This document shows positions 1 through 5,386 of a DNA stretch of 5,386 nt, in pieces. The stretch lies in sequence record MN266305. One strand, 5' to 3'. How positions within the stretch are numbered: the first letter of the stretch is position 1; each line of letters opens with the position of its first letter. The stretch is from Shigella phage SGF3. A model generated the notes under the pieces. That model worked only from the letters and a program-made list of their open reading frames with translations. It did no database searches and was not told where the DNA came from. A program made the translations under genes and the position numbers.

Positions 1-269
1 ATGCGTCCAAGAAGTTCAAGATTGCTGAGGGTCAATGGTATCGCTATGCACCGTCTTACGTTTCTCCTGCATATCACCTCCTTGAAGGCTTCCCATTTAT
101 TCAGGAACCGCCTTCTGGTGATTTGCAAGAACGTGTTCTTATTCGCCATCATGACTATGACCAGTGTTTCCAGTCTGTTCAGTTGCTGCAGTGGAATAGC
201 CAGGTGAAATTTAATGTGACCGTTTATCGCAATCTGCCGACTACTCGTGATTCAATCATGACTTCGTGA
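1..269 (+). CDS. F: Major capsid protein F, 3' portion (continues from 4372..5386 across the circular junction; first codon spans 5386,1,2; stop TGA at 267-269)
   Basis: Frame 3 translates without stops to ...GNASKKFKIAEGQWYRYAPSYVSPAYHLLEGFPFIQEPPSGDLQERVLIRHHDYDQCFQSVQLLQWNSQVKFNVTVYRNLPTTRDSIMTS*, matching the phiX174 F C-terminus as I recall it. 1015 nt + 269 nt = 1284 nt, the phiX174 F length. Confidence 0.93.
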   Translation, partial: ASKKFKIAEGQWYRYAPSYVSPAYHLLEGFPFIQEPPSGDLQERVLIRHHDYDQCFQSVQLLQWNSQVKFNVTVYRNLPTTRDSIMTS

Positions 270-300
270 TAAAAGATTGAGTGTGAGGTTGTAACGCCGA

Positions 301-328
301 AGCGGTAAAAATTTTAATTTTTGCCGCT
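301..328 (+). repeat. AT-rich imperfect inverted repeat (hairpin) in the F-G intergenic region; position matches the phiX174 primosome assembly (PriA/n') site and the TF terminator region
   Basis: agcggtaaaaatt (301-313) pairs with aatttttgccgct (316-328) with one G-T wobble; the non-coding spacer 270-379 lies between the F stop and G start. Confidence 0.6.
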
Positions 329-379
329 GAGGGGTTGACCAAGCGAAGCGCGGTAGGTTTTCTGCTTAGGAGTTTAATC

Positions 380-907
380 ATGTTTCAGACTTTTATTTCT
401 CGCCATAATTCAAACTTTTTTTCTGATAAGCTGGTTGCCACTTCTGTTACTCCAGCTTCTTTAGCACCTGTTTTACAGACACCTAAAGCTGCATCGTCAA
501 CGTTATATTTTAATCAGTTGACGGTTAATGCAGGTAATGGTGGTTTTCTCCATTGCATTCAGATGGACACATCTGTCAATGCCGCTAATCAGGTTGTTTC
601 TGTTGGTGCTGATATTGCTTTTGATGCCGACCCTAAATTTTTTGCCTGTTTGGTTCGTTTTGAGTCTGCTTCGGTTCCGACTACTCTCCCGACCGACTAT
701 GATGTTTATCCTTTAGATGGTCGCCATGATGGTGGTTATTATACTGTTAAGGATTGCGTGACCATTGACGTCCTTCCACGTGAGCCGGGCAATAATGTTT
801 ATGTTGGTTTCATGGTTTGGTCTAACTTTACCGCTACTAAATGCCGCGGATTGGTTTCGCTGAATCAGGTTATCAAAGAGATTATTTGTCTCCAGCCGCT
901 TAAGTGA
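380..907 (+). CDS. G: Major spike protein G (175 aa)
   Basis: ATG at 380 preceded by AGGAG (368-372, 7-nt spacing). Protein [19 protein letters not shown]...[10 protein letters not shown] matches phiX174 G with roughly 9 substitutions (from memory). The ORF-track start at 335 is an unsupported upstream extension. Confidence 0.93.
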
Positions 908-915
908 GGTGATTT

Positions 916-1902
916 ATGTTTGGTGCTATTGCTGGTGGTATTGCTTCCGCTCTTGCTGGTGGCGCCATGTCTAAATTGTTTGGAGGCGGTCAAAAAGCCG
1001 CCTCCGGTGGCATTCAAGGTGATGTTCTTGCTACCGATAACAATACTGTAGGCATGGGTGATGCTGGTATTAAGTCTGCTATTCAAGGTTCTAACGTTCC
1101 CAACCCTGATGAGGCCGCACCTAATTTTGTTTCTGGCGCTATGGCTAAAGCTGGTAAAGGACTTCTTGAAGGTACGTTGCAGGCTGGCACTTCTGCCGTT
1201 TCTGATAAGTTGCTTGATTTGGTTGGACTTGGTGGCAAGTCTGCCGCTGATAAAGGAAAGGATACTCGTGATTATCTTGCTGCTGCATTTCCTGAGCTTA
1301 ATGCTTGGGAGCGTGCTGGTGCTGGTGCTTCCTCTGCTGGTATGGTTGACGCCGGATTTGAGAATCAAAAAGAGCTTACTAAAATGCAACTGGACAATCA
1401 AAAAGAGATTGCCGAGATGCAAAATGAGACTCAAAAGGAGATTGCTGGCATTCAGTCGGCGACTTCACGCCAGAATACGAAAGACCAAGTATATGCACAA
1501 AATGAGATGCTTGCTTATCAACAAAAGGAGTCTACTGCTCGCGTTGCTTCTATTATGGAAAACACCAATCTTTCCAAGCAACAGCAGGTTTCTGAGATTA
1601 TGCGTCAGATGCTTATGCAAGCTCAAACGGCTGGTCAGTATTTTACCAATGACCAAATCAAAGAGATGACTCGTAAGGTCAGTGCTGAGGTTGACTTAGT
1701 TCATCAGCAAACGCAGAATCAGCGGTATGGTTCTTCTCATATTGGCGCTACTGCAAAGGATATTTCTAATGTCGTCACTGATGCTGCTTCTGGTGTGGTT
1801 GATATTTTTCATGGCATTGATAAAGCTGTTGCCGATACTTGGAACAATTTCTGGAAGGACGGTAAAGCTGATGGTATTGGCTCTAATTTGTCTAGGAAGT
1901 AA
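916..1902 (+). CDS. H: Minor spike / DNA pilot protein H (328 aa)
   Basis: ATG at 916 with GAGG at 906-909. 987 nt, the same as phiX174 H. Gly/Ala-rich N-terminus [25 protein letters not shown] and coiled-coil-like Q/E-rich middle, as in phiX174 H. Confidence 0.95.
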
Positions 1903-1911
1903 CCGTCGGGA

Positions 1912-1940
1912 TTGACACCTTTCTAATTGTATGATTTCAT
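1912..1940 (+). promoter_or_regulatory. Candidate sigma70 promoter PA for gene A: -35 TTGACA (1912-1917), 17-bp spacer, extended -10 TG-a-TTTCAT (1932-1940)
   Basis: Perfect -35 consensus in the H-A intergenic region; the -10 is a 4/6 match with an upstream TG. Position corresponds to the phiX174 PA region. The exact -10 assignment is uncertain. Confidence 0.5.
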
Positions 1941-1965
1941 GCCTCCAAATCTTGGAGGCTTTTTT
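1941..1965 (+). terminator. Stem-loop plus T6 tract (rho-independent-terminator-like, TH position) that also contains the gene A Shine-Dalgarno
   Basis: gcctccaa (1941-1948) / ttggaggc (1952-1959) form a perfect 8-bp stem with a 3-nt loop, followed by tttttt (1960-1965) and then the A start codon. GGAGG at 1954-1958 sits inside the 3' arm. Confidence 0.7.
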
Positions 1966-3507
1966 ATGGTTCGCTCTTATTACCCTTCTGAATGTCACGC
2001 TGATTATTTTGACTTTGAGCGCATTGAGGCTCTTAAGCCCGCTGTTGAGGCTTGTGGCATTTCTACCCTTTCTCAATCTCCGATGCTTGCCTTTTATAAG
2101 CAGATGGAAAACCGCATCAAGCTCTTGGAAGAGATTCTGTCATTTCGCATGCAGGGCGTTGAGTTCGATAATGGTGATATGTATGTCGACGGTCATAAGG
2201 CTGCTTCTGATGTTCGTGATGAGTTTGTATCTGTTACTGAAAAGTTAATGGATGAATTGGCACAATGTTACAACGTGCTCCCCCAACTTGATATTAATAA
2301 CACTATAGACCACCGCCCCGAAGGGGACGAAAAATGGTTTTTAGAGAACGATAAGACGGTTACGCAGTTTTGCCGTAAGCTGGCTGCTGAACGTCCTCTT
2401 AAGGATATTCGAGATGAGTATAATTACCCTAAAAAGAAAGGTATTAAGGATGAGTGTTCAAGATTGTTGGAGGCCTCCACTATGAAATCGCGTAGAGGCT
2501 TTACTATTCAACGTTTGATGAATGCAATGCGTCAGGCTCATGCTGATGGCTGGTTTATCGTTTTTGACACTCTTACGCTGGCTGATGACCGCTTAGAGGC
2601 GTTTTATGATAACCACAATGCTTTGCGTGACTATTTTCGTGATATTGGTCGTATGGTTCTTGCTGCCGAGGGTCGTAAGGCTAATGAATCACATGCCGAC
2701 TGCTATCAGTATTTTTGTGTGCCTGAGTATGGTTCAGCTAATGGCCGTCTTCATTTCCATGCGGTGCATTTTATGCGGACACTTCCTACAGGTAGCGTTG
2801 ACCCTAATTTTGGTCGTCGGGTACGCAATCGCCGCCAGTTAAATAGCTTGCAAAATACGTGGCCTTATGGTTACAGTATGCCTATCGCAGTTCGCTATAC
2901 GCAGGACGCTTTTTCACGTTCTGGATGGTTGTGGCCTGTTGATGCTAAAGGTGAGCCGCTTAAAGCTACCAGTTACATGGCTGTTGGCTTCTATGTGGCT
3001 AAATACGTTAACAAAAAGTCAGATATGGACCTTGCCGCTAAAGGTCTAGGAGCTAAAGAATGGAACAACTCACTAAAAACCAAGCTGTCGTTACTTCCCA
3101 AGAAATTATTCAGAATCCGAATGAGCCGCAACTTCGGGATGAAAATGCTCACAATGACCAACCTATCAATGGAATGCTTAATCCAGCTTACCAAGCTGGG
3201 TTACGACGCGACACCGTTCAATCAGATATTGAAGCAGAACGCAAAAAGAGAGATGAAATCGAGGCTGGCAAAAGTTACTGTAGCCGACGTTTTGGCGGCG
3301 CAACCTGTGACGACAAATCTGCTCAAATTTATGCGCGCTTCGATAAAAATGATTGGCGTGTCCAACCTGCAGAGTTTTATCGCTTCCATGACGCAGAAGT
3401 TAACACTTTCGGATATTTCTGATGAGTCGAAAAATTATCTTGATAAAGCAGGAATTACTACTGCTTGTTTACGAATTAAATCGAAGTGGACTGCTGGCGG
3501 AAAATGA
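1966..3507 (+). CDS. A: Replication initiation protein A (513 aa), HUH rolling-circle endonuclease
   Basis: ATG at 1966 after the GGAGG-containing hairpin. Protein [25 protein letters not shown]... matches phiX174 A. HUH motif in [10 protein letters not shown]; catalytic tyrosine pair in [10 protein letters not shown] (codons 343 and 347, nt 2992-2994 and 3004-3006). The ORF-track start at 1927 is an upstream extension. Confidence 0.95.
2284..2313 (+). other. Origin of (+)-strand rolling-circle replication (30-nt ori; gene A protein nick site between G2290 and A2291)
   Basis: caacttgatattaataacactatagaccac is identical to the phiX174 30-nt origin as I recall it, at the same offset (318 nt) from the A start codon. 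Confidence 0.85.
2482..3507 (+). CDS. A*: A* protein (in-frame internal initiation within gene A; 341 aa)
   Basis: In-frame ATG at 2482 ([16 protein letters not shown]...), 516 nt downstream of the A start, the same offset as phiX174 A*. Upstream GGAGG at 2469-2473. Confidence 0.7.
2848..2880 (+). promoter_or_regulatory. Possible PB promoter region upstream of gene B (inside gene A): -35-like TTGCAA (2848-2853), -10-like TACAGT (2872-2877)
   Basis: phiX174 is known to have a promoter for B inside A. The hexamers here are weak matches and my positional recall is imprecise. Confidence 0.3.
3060..3422 (+). CDS. B: Internal scaffolding protein B (120 aa), encoded entirely within gene A in a different frame
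   Basis: ATG at 3060 with AGGAG at 3048-3052. Protein [15 protein letters not shown]...[12 protein letters not shown]; the C-terminal half matches phiX174 B, the N-terminal third is more diverged. Stop TGA at 3420-3422. Confidence 0.93.
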
Positions 3508-3592
3508 GAAAATTCGACCTATCCTTGCGCAGCTCGAGAAGCTCTTACTTTGCGACCTTTCGCCATCAACTAACGATTCTGTCAAAAACTGA
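3422..3592 (+). CDS. K: Protein K (56 aa), overlapping the end of A/B and the start of C
   Basis: ATG at 3422-3424 overlaps the B stop (TGATG). Translates [56 protein letters not shown], matching phiX174 K. Below the ORF-track size cut-off. Confidence 0.85.
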
Positions 3593-3764
3593 TGCGTTGG
3601 ATGAGGAGAAGTGGCTCAATATGCTTGGCACGTTCGTTAAGGACTGGTTTAGATATGAGTCACATTTTGTTCACGGTAGAGATTCTCTTGTTGACATTTT
3701 AAAAGAGCGTGGATTACTATCTGAATCCGATGTAGTTCAACCATTAATAGGTAAAAAATCATGA
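3504..3764 (+). CDS. C: Protein C (86 aa), DNA maturation / switch from RF replication to ssDNA synthesis
   Basis: ATG at 3504 overlaps the A stop (ATGA, stop 3505-3507). Protein [86 protein letters not shown]. 261 nt, as in phiX174. Confidence 0.92.
3691..3720 (+). promoter_or_regulatory. Candidate PD promoter inside gene C: -35 TTGACA (3691-3696), 18-bp spacer, -10 TACTAT (3715-3720)
   Basis: Perfect -35 hexamer and a 4/6 -10. The predicted start near 3727-3729 corresponds to the phiX174 D-promoter start as I recall it (about nt 358 in reference numbering). Confidence 0.6.
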
Positions 3765-4219
3765 GTCAAGTTACTGAACAATCTGTACGTTTCCAAACCG
3801 CACTGGCTTCTATCAAGCTGATTCAGGCCTCTGCTGTTTTGGATTTAACCGAAGATGATTTCGATTTTCTGACGAGCAACAAAGTTTGGATTGCTACTGA
3901 CCGCTCTCGCGCTCGTCGCTGTGTAGAGGCTTGCGTTTATGGTACGCTGGACTTTGTGGGATACCCTCGCTTTCCTGCTCCTGTTGAGTTTATTGCTGCC
4001 GTCATTGCTTATTATGTTCATCCCGTCAACATTCAAACGGCCTGTCTCATCATGGAAGGCGCTGAGTTTACGGAAAACATTATTAATGGCGTCGAGCGTC
4101 CGGTTAAGGCCGCTGAGCTGTTCGCGTTTACCCTGCGTGTACGCGCAGGAAACACTGACGTTCTTACTGACGCAGAAGAGAACGTCCGCCAGAAATTACG
4201 CGCAGAAGGAGTGATGTAA
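3761..4219 (+). CDS. D: External scaffolding protein D (152 aa)
   Basis: ATG at 3761 overlaps the C stop (ATGA). Protein [34 protein letters not shown]...RQKLRAEGVM appears identical to phiX174 D (from memory). Confidence 0.96.
   Translation: MSQVTEQSVRFQTALASIKLIQASAVLDLTEDDFDFLTSNKVWIATDRSRARRCVEACVYGTLDFVGYPRFPAPVEFIAAVIAYYVHPVNIQTACLIMEGAEFTENIINGVERPVKAAELFAFTLRVRAGNTDVLTDAEENVRQKLRAEGVM
3939..4214 (+). CDS. E: Lysis protein E (91 aa), MraY inhibitor, encoded within gene D in the +1 frame
   Basis: ATG at 3939. N-terminal transmembrane segment MVRWTLWDTLAFLLLLSLLLPSLLIMFIPSTFKRPVSSWKAL is conserved with phiX174 E; the C-terminal tail differs (…KRTSARNYAQKE). 276 nt, as in phiX174. Confidence 0.92.
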   Translation: MVRWTLWDTLAFLLLLSLLLPSLLIMFIPSTFKRPVSSWKALSLRKTLLMASSVRLRPLSCSRLPCVYAQETLTFLLTQKRTSARNYAQKE

Positions 4220-4335
4220 TGTCTAAAGGTAAAAAACGTTCTGGCGCTCGCCCCGGTCGTCCGCAGCCGTTGCGAGGCACTAAAGGCAAGCGCAAAGGTG
4301 CTCGCCTTTGGTATGTAGGCGGTCAACAATTTTAA
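4219..4335 (+). CDS. J: DNA-binding / packaging protein J (38 aa, highly basic)
   Basis: ATG at 4219-4221 overlaps the D stop (TAATG), with AGGAG at 4206-4210. Translates MSKGKKRSGARPGRPQPLRGTKGKRKGARLWYVGGQQF*, matching phiX174 J. Confidence 0.9.
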   Translation: MSKGKKRSGARPGRPQPLRGTKGKRKGARLWYVGGQQF

Positions 4336-4340
4336 TTTCA

Positions 4341-4354
4341 GGGGCTTCGGCCCC
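4341..4354 (+). terminator. J-F intergenic GC stem with UUCG tetraloop (GGGGC-UUCG-GCCCC); TJ terminator / mRNA-stabilising hairpin position
   Basis: ggggc ttcg gcccc is a perfect 5-bp GC stem with a UUCG loop, 17 nt upstream of the F start, followed by the GAGGA Shine-Dalgarno at 4361-4365. Confidence 0.7.
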
Positions 4355-4371
4355 TTACTTGAGGATAAATT

Positions 4372-5386
4372 ATGTCTAATGTTCAAACTGGCGCAGAGCG
4401 CATGCCGCATGACCTTTCTCACCTCGGTTTCCTTGCTGGTCAGATTGGTCGTCTTATTACCATTTCAACTACTCCGGTTATCGCTGGCGACTCCTTCGAA
4501 ATGGACGCCGTGGGCGCTCTCCGTCTTTCTCCATTGCGTCGCGGCCTTGCTATTGACTCTACCGTAGACATTTTTACTTTTTATGTCCCTCATCGTCATG
4601 TTTATGGTGAGCAGTGGATTAAGTTTATGAAAGATGGCGTTAATGCCGCTCCGCTCCCGACCGTTAACACTACTGGTTATATTGACCATGCCGCTTTTCT
4701 TGGCACGATTAACCCTGATACCAATAAAATTCCTAAGCATTTGTTTCAGGGTTATCTGAATATCTATAACAACTACTTTAAAGCGCCGTGGATGCCTGAC
4801 CGTACTGAGGCTAACCCTAATCAGCTTAACGAAGATGATGCTCGTTATGGCTTCCGCTGCTGCCATCTCAAAAACATTTGGACTGCTCCGCTTCCTCCAG
4901 AGACTGAGCTTTCTCGCCAAATGACAACTTCTACCACGTCTATTGACATTATGGGTCTGCAAGCTGCTTATGCTAATTTGCATACTGACCAAGAACGTGA
5001 TTATTTCATGCAGCGTTACCGTGATGTTATTTCTTCATTTGGAGGTAAAACGTCTTATGACGCTGACAACCGTCCTTTACTTGTCATGCGCTCTAATTTC
5101 TGGGCATCTGGCTATGATGTTGATGGAACTGACCAAACGTCGTTAGGCCAGTTTTCTGGTCGTGTTCAACAGACCTATAAACATTCTGTGCCGCGTTTCT
5201 TTGTTCCTGAGCATGGCACTATGTTTACTCTCGCGCTGGTTCGCTTCCCGCCTACAGCGACTAAAGAGATTCAGTACCTCAATGCTAAAGGTGCTTTGAC
5301 TTATACCGATATTGCTGGCGACCCTGCCTTGTATGGCAATTTGCCTCCGCGTGAAATTTCTATGAAAGATGTTTTCCGTTCCGGTA
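4372..5386 (+). CDS. F: Major capsid protein F, 5' portion (338 codons plus 1 nt; continues at 1..269 across the circular junction; full length 427 aa)
   Basis: ATG at 4372 with GAGGA at 4361-4365. MSNVQTGAERMPHDLSHLGFLAGQIGRLITISTTPVIAGDSFEMDAVGALRLSP... runs open to the window end and matches phiX174 F apart from a few substitutions. Confidence 0.95.
   Translation, partial: MSNVQTGAERMPHDLSHLGFLAGQIGRLITISTTPVIAGDSFEMDAVGALRLSPLRRGLAIDSTVDIFTFYVPHRHVYGEQWIKFMKDGVNAAPLPTVNTTGYIDHAAFLGTINPDTNKIPKHLFQGYLNIYNNYFKAPWMPDRTEANPNQLNEDDARYGFRCCHLKNIWTAPLPPETELSRQMTTSTTSIDIMGLQAAYANLHTDQERDYFMQRYRDVISSFGGKTSYDADNRPLLVMRSNFWASGYDVDGTDQTSLGQFSGRVQQTYKHSVPRFFVPEHGTMFTLALVRFPPTATKEIQYLNAKGALTYTDIAGDPALYGNLPPREISMKDVFRSG

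Follow-up and report, generated by a model that had tools for sequence, protein, structure and literature searches.

The genome of Shigella phage SGF3 (sequence record MN266305; 5,386 nucleotides (nt), the whole of which we call the window) differs from laboratory phage phiX174 at a few percent of its positions, and the question it raises is whether these differences record adaptation to a host or the ordinary divergence of a wild relative. A sequence-only reading of the window had seen a natural variant of the phiX174 clade with substitutions concentrated in the capsid and spike proteins F, G and H, a pattern that could reflect host adaptation. We consider it about 90% probable that the window is a wild phiX174-like microvirus (Sinsheimervirus) of a tight lineage to which Salmonella phage PJNS001 also belongs, and that what separates it from the laboratory reference is ordinary divergence within the clade under strong purifying selection. 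Of the three proteins only the spike protein G is enriched in change. The genome is already known: SGF3 was published in 2022, and for its near twin PJNS001 a capsid structure followed in 2025.

A wild genome of the phiX174 clade

The window is a full circular phiX174-type genome, rotated so that both of its ends lie inside gene F. By k-mer voting against NC_001422, a single offset relates the two: phiX174 position p becomes window position (p-1+3371) mod 5386 + 1. The gap-free MAFFT alignment shows 243 substitutions (193 transitions and 50 transversions) and no insertions or deletions (indels), that is, 95.49% identity and 4.51% divergence; at the protein level there are 57 amino-acid differences in total. 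All 11 genes (A, A*, B, K, C, D, E, J, F, G and H) keep their phiX174 coordinates, starts, stops and overlaps, with no internal stops, and the 10 distinct proteins match their own Pfam families (Phage_GPA, Phage_B, Protein_K, Phage_C, gpD, Microvir_lysis, Microvir_J, Phage_F, Phage_G and Microvir_H) far over the cut-off. The genomic marks of the genus clade are therefore present: a circular genome of ~5.4 kb, the characteristic gene order and overlaps, the Pfam families, the 30-nt origin and high identity to phiX174. Species are delimited at 95% nucleotide identity in the practice of the International Committee on Taxonomy of Viruses, and the window stands at 95.49% to NC_001422. Its distance of 243 substitutions lies inside the range of the wild isolates, which show 92-265 differences from phiX174. 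Natural membership of the clade, as first proposed, is borne out; the divergence had been expected to resemble that of S13 or the wild isolates, and it is within the range of the isolates and about twice that of S13 (119).

Three proteins of the window match SGF3 records exactly (G, QFG06250.1; H, QFG06251.1; A, QFG06252.1; 1,016 residues together). The phage is filed by NCBI taxonomy as 'unclassified Sinsheimervirus' (taxid 2608295), and Lu et al. 2022 (Mol Genet Genomics 297:935), so far as it is cited in PMC10204329, describes SGF3 as a Sinsheimervirus of 5,386 bp whose isolation host was Shigella flexneri 1.10599. The best match in INPHARED is Salmonella phage PJNS001 (PQ479934; 99.39% identity, 33 differences), followed by WA4 and SP14 at ~97.1%. 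In neighbour-joining trees, both whole-genome and per-gene, the window falls inside a group of PJNS001/SGF3-like genomes, with alphaalpha, SP14, WA4 and WA11 next. Six Logan contigs, each from an independent run, also encode this G protein; five of them are complete circular genomes 3, 17, 18, 35 and 75 nt from the window. A 31-mer of the lineage G allele matches, among the fetched loci, only PJNS001 and the six Logan loci; it has no match in the IMG/VR viral contigs.

Could the sequence come from a laboratory rather than from the wild? Carry-over of the phiX174 sequencing control, or a laboratory-evolved phiX174 line, would account for the same 5,386 length and the same gene map, and many 'phiX174' records from evolution experiments are among the matches. 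The 243 substitutions, however, exclude full identity to the reference, the laboratory and evolved phiX174 records listed are all at 95.5-95.6% identity, and the substitutions are mainly synonymous and match the states of wild isolates, F residue 243 being the wild F rather than the laboratory L; we regard such an origin as extremely improbable. An engineered, decompressed or recoded phiX174 is even harder to credit, since the overlaps A/A*/B/K/C, C/D, D/E and D/J all lie at native coordinates with 0 indels, close copies of this genome are known from six independent public sequencing runs and from two isolated phages, and the substitutions match natural polymorphisms. The earlier argument from intact overlaps against recoding is upheld: because of the 243 substitutions, the native overlaps and the retained origin and hexamers, the window is neither a sequencing control nor a decompressed or recoded construct.

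The features of the window are as follows.

1-269, + strand: gene F, C-terminal part, remainder of codon 339 to the stop; continues 4372-5386, the joined frame being 427 amino acids (aa)
270-379, + strand: F-G intergenic region; 1 of 110 nt differs from phiX174, 5.5% of sites variable clade-wide
380-907, + strand: gene G, major spike protein, 175 aa; exact match to the SGF3 protein and to chain G of PDB 9K3M
Codons within G: lineage-specific D106 (695-697) and E135 (782-784); variable A38 (491-493), N45-Q46 (512-517) and A97 (668-670)
916-1902, + strand: gene H, pilot or minor spike protein, 328 aa; M234 codon at 1615-1617
1903-1965, + strand: H-A intergenic region with TTGACA and TATGAT hexamers and a terminator-like hairpin GCCTCCAAATCTTGGAGGC followed by a T-run (1941-1959); hairpin found by scan
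1966-3507, + strand: gene A, replication initiator, 513 aa; phiX174 3981-136; Pfam PF05840 Phage_GPA, 3.7e-61
2284-2313, + strand: origin of viral-strand synthesis, 30 nt, in gene A, CAACTTGATATTAATAACACTATAGACCAC; identical to phiX174 4299-4328
2482-3507, + strand: A*, internal start in frame with A
3060-3422, + strand: gene B, internal scaffolding protein, 120 aa, overprinted in A; Pfam PF02304
3422-3592, + strand: gene K, 56 aa, overlaps A and C; Pfam PF12283
3504-3764, + strand: gene C, 86 aa; Pfam PF12025
3691-3720, + strand: promoter-like TTGACA-18-TACTAT upstream of gene D, from a consensus scan; hexamers same as in phiX174
3761-4219, + strand: gene D, external scaffolding protein, 152 aa; Pfam PF02925
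3939-4214, + strand: gene E, lysis protein, 91 aa, overprinted in D; Pfam PF04517
4219-4335, + strand: gene J, DNA-binding core protein, 38 aa; Pfam PF04726
4336-4371, + strand: J-F intergenic region with GC-rich hairpin GGGGCTTCGGCCCC; 1 of 36 nt differs from phiX174, the hairpin itself untouched
4372-5386, + strand: gene F, major capsid protein, 338 codons and the first base of codon 339; Pfam PF02305, 6.8e-171

The nick site in the origin is the equivalent of phiX174 4305/4306, and NC_001422 annotates its rep_origin at 4306. Promoter hexamers and intergenic hairpins are retained relative to phiX174. The site at 3691-3720 lies at the position of the phiX174 promoter P_D and would presumably act as that promoter does; the hexamers between H and A lie where P_A is placed in phiX174. 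Five of the 63 nt between H and A differ from phiX174; at four of them the bases of the window (T, T, T and A) are also those of S13, WA4 and alphaalpha, so that here it is phiX174 that has the private state. Within this region the -10-like hexamer is TATGAT where phiX174 has TATGTT, and CCTTTCT (window, S13, WA4 and alphaalpha) stands in place of the reference CCCTCCC.

Distribution and ownership of the changes

Counted gene by gene against phiX174, with the ratio of non-synonymous to synonymous substitution rates (dN/dS), the changes are these.

A: 66 of 1542 nt; 13 aa; dN/dS 0.061
B: 18 of 363 nt; 13 aa; dN/dS 0.91 (overprinted in A)
K: 0 of 171 nt; 0 aa; dN/dS not applicable
C: 9 of 261 nt; 1 aa (A77V); dN/dS 0.032
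D: 24 of 459 nt; 0 aa; dN/dS 0 (every change synonymous)
E: 11 of 276 nt; 9 aa, all within residues 43-89; dN/dS 1.47 (overprinted in D)
J: 6 of 117 nt; 0 aa; dN/dS 0 (every change synonymous)
F: 71 of 1284 nt; 9 aa (I4V, T93A, E151Q, Q154E, H217R, L243F, V319A, D339N, S340A); dN/dS 0.036
G: 31 of 528 nt; 9 aa (L20A, S28L, T38A, D45N, S46Q, S97A, A106D, N113D, T135E); dN/dS 0.197
H: 29 of 987 nt; 3 aa (S70N, D137G, T234M); dN/dS 0.037

As a list of differences, the sequence-only reading was accurate. D and J are identical to their phiX174 counterparts (as is K), G has exactly the nine changes that had been estimated, H has three and shows every motif that had been quoted for it, the changes in F include I4V (in 'MSNVQ') and D339N/S340A (in 'GNASKK', which spans the window ends), and both B and the C-terminus of E differ as described. 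The concentration read from this list fares less well. Genes F, G and H together hold no excess of nucleotide changes (131 of 2799, 4.68%) over the rest of the genome (112 of 2587, 4.33%; Fisher p = 0.55), nor any excess of amino-acid changes (21 of 930) over A, C, D, J and K (14 of 845; p = 0.40); F and H taken together are not enriched relative to those same five proteins (odds ratio 0.96, p = 1.0). Of the three proteins only G is enriched, by a factor of about three (9 of 175 against 26 of 1600 amino-acid positions changed, p = 0.005), and its dN/dS exceeds those of F and H. A concentration of change in capsid and spike proteins thus stands for the spike protein G and fails for F and H. The overall spectrum is one of purifying selection in which transitions at third codon positions predominate; codon position 3 holds 60 of the 71 changes in F and 26 of the 29 in H.

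The highest density of protein change lies elsewhere, in B and E (22 of 211 residues against 35 of 1775, p = 1.6e-8). Each of the nine changes in E traces back to a substitution at a third codon position of D that leaves the D residue intact and hits the second position of an E codon. Of the 18 nucleotide changes where A and B overlap, 14 alter a residue of B while leaving protein A unchanged. The density is high because substitutions that are silent in A and D alter residues in the frames embedded there; the differences seen in B and E are a by-product of overprinting and carry no separate signal.

Who owns a given difference matters as much as where it falls. We polarised the amino-acid differences with 16 other clade genomes and six close relatives, and 14 of the 57 proved private to the phiX174 reference, the window having the near-universal wild residue. 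These include I4V, H217R, L243F and V319A in F, L20A, S28L and N113D in G, S70N and D137G in H, and A180T and T402M in A; at those sites in F, G and H the residue of the window is carried by 15-16 of the 16 other clade genomes. One of them, L243 in F of laboratory phiX174, is a known temperature-sensitive lesion (PMC2935103), and the window carries the wild F243. The remaining differences are mostly shared clade polymorphisms. Only three, A106D and T135E in G and H44Y in A, are fixed in and restricted to the lineage of SGF3 and PJNS001, and no lineage-specific change in F was found among the 16 clade genomes and six relatives.

The one F residue that sets the window apart from its relatives depends on its last base. 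D339N requires the A at window position 5386, where PJNS001 and the five complete Logan relatives have G; the latter include the contig only 3 nt from the window, which is otherwise 2 nt away. Replacing this A by G gives exactly the gpF sequence of coliphage ID34. N339 does occur naturally, in NC56. D339N may accordingly be a private variant or an error of contig end or circularisation. The authors of the PJNS001 study count eight F differences from phiX174 (PMC12328618), which agrees with the nine of the window minus D339N.

In H, two of the three changes are the general wild state, and the third, M234, occurs together with A H217 among the compared genomes only in the window and the Logan contig L015. 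Residue 234 is the sole multi-allelic H site in the clade, its alleles being T, M (the window) and I (MED1). The change T234I has been recovered as a second-site suppressor of H-tube mutants (PMC7354561). Because residue 234 adjoins the residues of H-tube mutagenesis and T234I is such a suppressor, T234M more likely concerns DNA delivery than receptor choice.

The spike protein G and host range

Across 17 independent genomes of the clade, G has a pooled ratio of non-synonymous to synonymous polymorphism (pN/pS) of 0.229, with 17.6% of its amino-acid sites variable and 5.7% multi-allelic. The corresponding values are 0.046, 8.6% and 1.4% for F, 0.034, 8.2% and 0.3% for H, and 0.059, 8.2% and 1.4% for the non-overlapped part of A. 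Throughout the clade G has evolved at about five times the rate of F and H, and its excess of change is not peculiar to the window. The G changes of the window fall in part at multi-allelic sites, namely 46 (S/Q/E), 97 (S/A/P/T), 106 (A/D/Y) and 135 (T/E/M), several of them requiring 2-3 nt substitutions per codon. The pattern fits diversifying or relaxed selection on the spike, with pN/pS well under 1.

Does this amount to adaptation to a host? The closest isolates do come from particular hosts. Those nearest the window were isolated on Shigella flexneri and on rfaL-deleted (rough) Salmonella, not on E. coli C. PJNS001 was obtained from wastewater on an rfaL-deleted derivative of Salmonella ATCC 14028; the wild type was not lysed, and infectivity was lost when rfaJ was deleted as well (PMC12328618). 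Since rfaL deletion is required and rfaJ deletion abolishes infection, PJNS001 needs an exposed and complete lipopolysaccharide (LPS) core. Its authors did not identify the G residues that contact the receptor (PMC12328618).

In its broad form, in which F, G and H together concentrate amino-acid changes that adapt the phage to a new host, the idea draws on these isolation hosts and on the enrichment of G. It draws also on Q154E in F (codon 4831-4833), which is F153 in mature numbering and an experimentally defined host-recognition site, on the position of F residues 339 and 340 two or three residues from the host-recognition site F336 (mature numbering), and on T38A in G, found in all three Salmonella-isolated lineages and in 0 sampled isolates from E. 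coli C. Substitution of F Q154 by K or R alters LPS specificity in experiments with E. coli C (PMC10368449). Each of these has its counterweight. F and H show no enrichment relative to A, by which a host signature is refuted for both; F lacks any lineage-specific change and, leaving aside its doubtful last base, is the F of a coliphage. E154 is the majority wild state, present in 12 of the 16 other genomes, E. coli C isolates included. The three Salmonella-isolated lineages cluster in the trees, so that the G residues they have in common may be inherited from one ancestor rather than convergent, and the excess of change in G belongs to the clade as a whole. We find a joint signature unlikely; of the proposed host-adaptive pattern, the enrichment of G survives, and the F and H parts do not, many of the F, G and H differences being those of the reference.

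We favour ordinary clade divergence, within which host adaptation limited to a handful of sites (154 in F; 46, 97, 106 and 135 in G) is plausible but unproven. The hypervariable positions of G would be the likeliest contributors to any differences in LPS-core specificity. A more specific proposal, that residues 38, 45, 46, 97, 106 and 135 of G together with E154 of F set which LPS core is accepted and would so explain recovery on Shigella and rough Salmonella over E. coli C, we hold to be doubtful. If it were true, G would be a natural determinant of host range, although laboratory evolution of phiX174 implicated almost only F and H.

Three points weigh against the account given here. First, the full-length F protein with N339 matches no recorded protein in an exact-sequence look-up, a possible reason being that the deposited sequence is opened within this gene. 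Second, in the experimental evolution of phiX174 across 58 lines, G changed at eight sites only and without a host-specific pattern (Wichman and Brown, PMC2935103); the host-recognition changes in those lines map to F101, 102, 153, 336, 361, 364 and 388 in mature numbering (PMC2935103). The case for G variation as host adaptation is weakened because experimental host shifts changed G little and mapped to F. Third, the role of the hypervariable G positions in receptor specificity is one that we infer.

Recombination and comparison with known phages

The substitutions are unevenly spread along the genome (chi-square p = 0.0004), and this raises another explanation: the window might be a recent recombinant mosaic of phiX-like lineages, the uneven differences marking breakpoints rather than selection. 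Several observations point this way. The nearest relative besides PJNS001 shifts along the genome, from alphaalpha (end of F and F-G spacer) to ID34, NC41 and WA11 (G) and to NC1, NC7 and MED1 (D/E), and gene trees are incongruent, with for example the Logan contig L016 and MED1 switching clade. Of the 33 differences from PJNS001, 23 lie in the gene A region at 2229-3260, which is 19% of the genome (binomial p = 4e-10). In the A/B overlap at 3091-3260, six sub-lineage changes occur within 170 nt and are carried only by the window and the Logan contigs L015, L018 and L019, apart from two that are also in WA11. Against a recent origin, the PJNS001/SGF3-like group is monophyletic in the F, G, H and A trees, so that any mosaicism is older than the group, and the unevenness follows overlap constraint in part: clade-wide, 4.7-9.6% of sites vary in most overlapped regions as against 16-18% in F and G. 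We put a recent mosaic at somewhat below even odds; it would in any case complement clade divergence under purifying selection and not replace it. The region-wise relatives and discordant trees fit the recombination reported for the phiX-like clade, as far as such patterns can suggest it.

Two segments deserve separate mention. The cluster at 3091-3260 yields A11V, V36I, A52T and P55S in B and R431K and L432S in A, and may itself be a short stretch acquired from an unsampled donor. Contig L016 (SRR23754801) leaves the PJNS001/SGF3-like group in the tree of C-D-J and sits beside NC41, NC5, NC37 and NC56, which suggests that its C-D-J segment is recombinant.

Positions 3361-3593, covering the end of A and B and the whole of K, form a 233-nt run with 0 substitutions relative to phiX174, where ~10 would be expected at the genome-wide rate. 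We considered a recombination patch from a phiX174-like donor and set it aside, the stretch being near-identical in most genomes and lying in a multi-frame overlap. Over the span of phiX174 1-300, most compared genomes have 0-4 mismatches to the window (WA11 has 10), and 4.7% of sites in the A/K overlap vary in the clade. Constraint from the multi-frame overlap is the likely cause of the run.

Some database records met along the way are themselves irregular. SP14 (PP501405, L004 in our set) contains an exact 127-nt tandem duplication within gene D (49-175 = 176-302), which accounts for its 5,513-nt length and for a D annotation that is cut short. The duplication is probably an artefact of assembly, and the duplicated 127 nt were removed ahead of analysis. 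The same record is filed under Caudoviricetes though SP14 is a microvirus. Two other records, MT947439 (Protaetiibacter phage SSC1, 5,386 bp) and MZ417522 (Mycolicibacterium phage J1, 24,953 bp), score against the window exactly as phiX174 reference records do, and gene A is matched in full within J1; phiX174 control sequence is probably present in both of these deposited 'phages' of Gram-positive hosts.

In phiX174, protein A drives rolling-circle replication, B and D assemble the procapsid, J serves packaging, H forms the delivery tube, E lyses the cell, and adsorption is to rough LPS. The present phage should work in the same way: its gene set, origin, hexamers, hairpins and protein families are those found here, and the functions are carried over from phiX174. 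By that analogy, protein A would nick the conserved 30-nt origin to begin rolling-circle replication, B and D would scaffold a T=1 capsid of F with pentamer spikes of G, J would package the single-stranded DNA, H would form the DNA-delivery tube and E would lyse the host. The receptor would be the rough LPS core, with adsorption as in phiX174, and the variable G positions together with F154 may tune specificity for that core.

As a discovery this genome has little importance, and the useful outcome is methodological. Comparing a wild microvirus with laboratory phiX174 alone overstates the changes that are its own, since the reference has private states of its own, in part defective (such as F L243), and amino-acid counts in the overprinted genes B and E reflect silent drift in the host frame. 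The fast, multi-allelic evolution of G is the one real signal, already noted in the literature. The PJNS001 capsid has been determined by cryogenic electron microscopy at 2.68 Å (PDB 9K3M; PMC12328618), and its G chain is 100% identical to the G of the window; as the structure holds exactly this sequence, the G signal is now directly testable.

Apart from SGF3 itself, PJNS001 is the closest known system. It has the same gene map, and four of its proteins (G, J, C and K) agree with the window residue for residue. From PJNS001 to the window, the residue differences are E129D, E130K, P217H, D241E, R431K and L432S in A, the four already listed for the 3091-3260 cluster in B (A11V, V36I, A52T and P55S), and one each in D (L123F), E (K85R), F (D339N) and H (T234M). 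phiX174 itself (NC_001422 / J02482), the type of Sinsheimervirus phiX174, shares length, genes and overlaps, the identical origin 30-mer and the identical D, J and K proteins; it differs by the 243 substitutions and 57 residues described above, at 14 of which, temperature-sensitive F L243 among them, it is the odd one out in the clade. The wild phiX-like phages of Rokyta et al. 2006 were reportedly isolated on E. coli C (host counts in a search summary agree; the individual records give no host). These wild coliphages (WA4, ID34, NC1 and others) and S13 belong with the window to one species-level clade, share most of its amino-acid states and have in common with it a fast-evolving G; they differ from the window by 150-235 nt, and none has either D106 or E135, the residues that mark the G protein of SGF3 and PJNS001.

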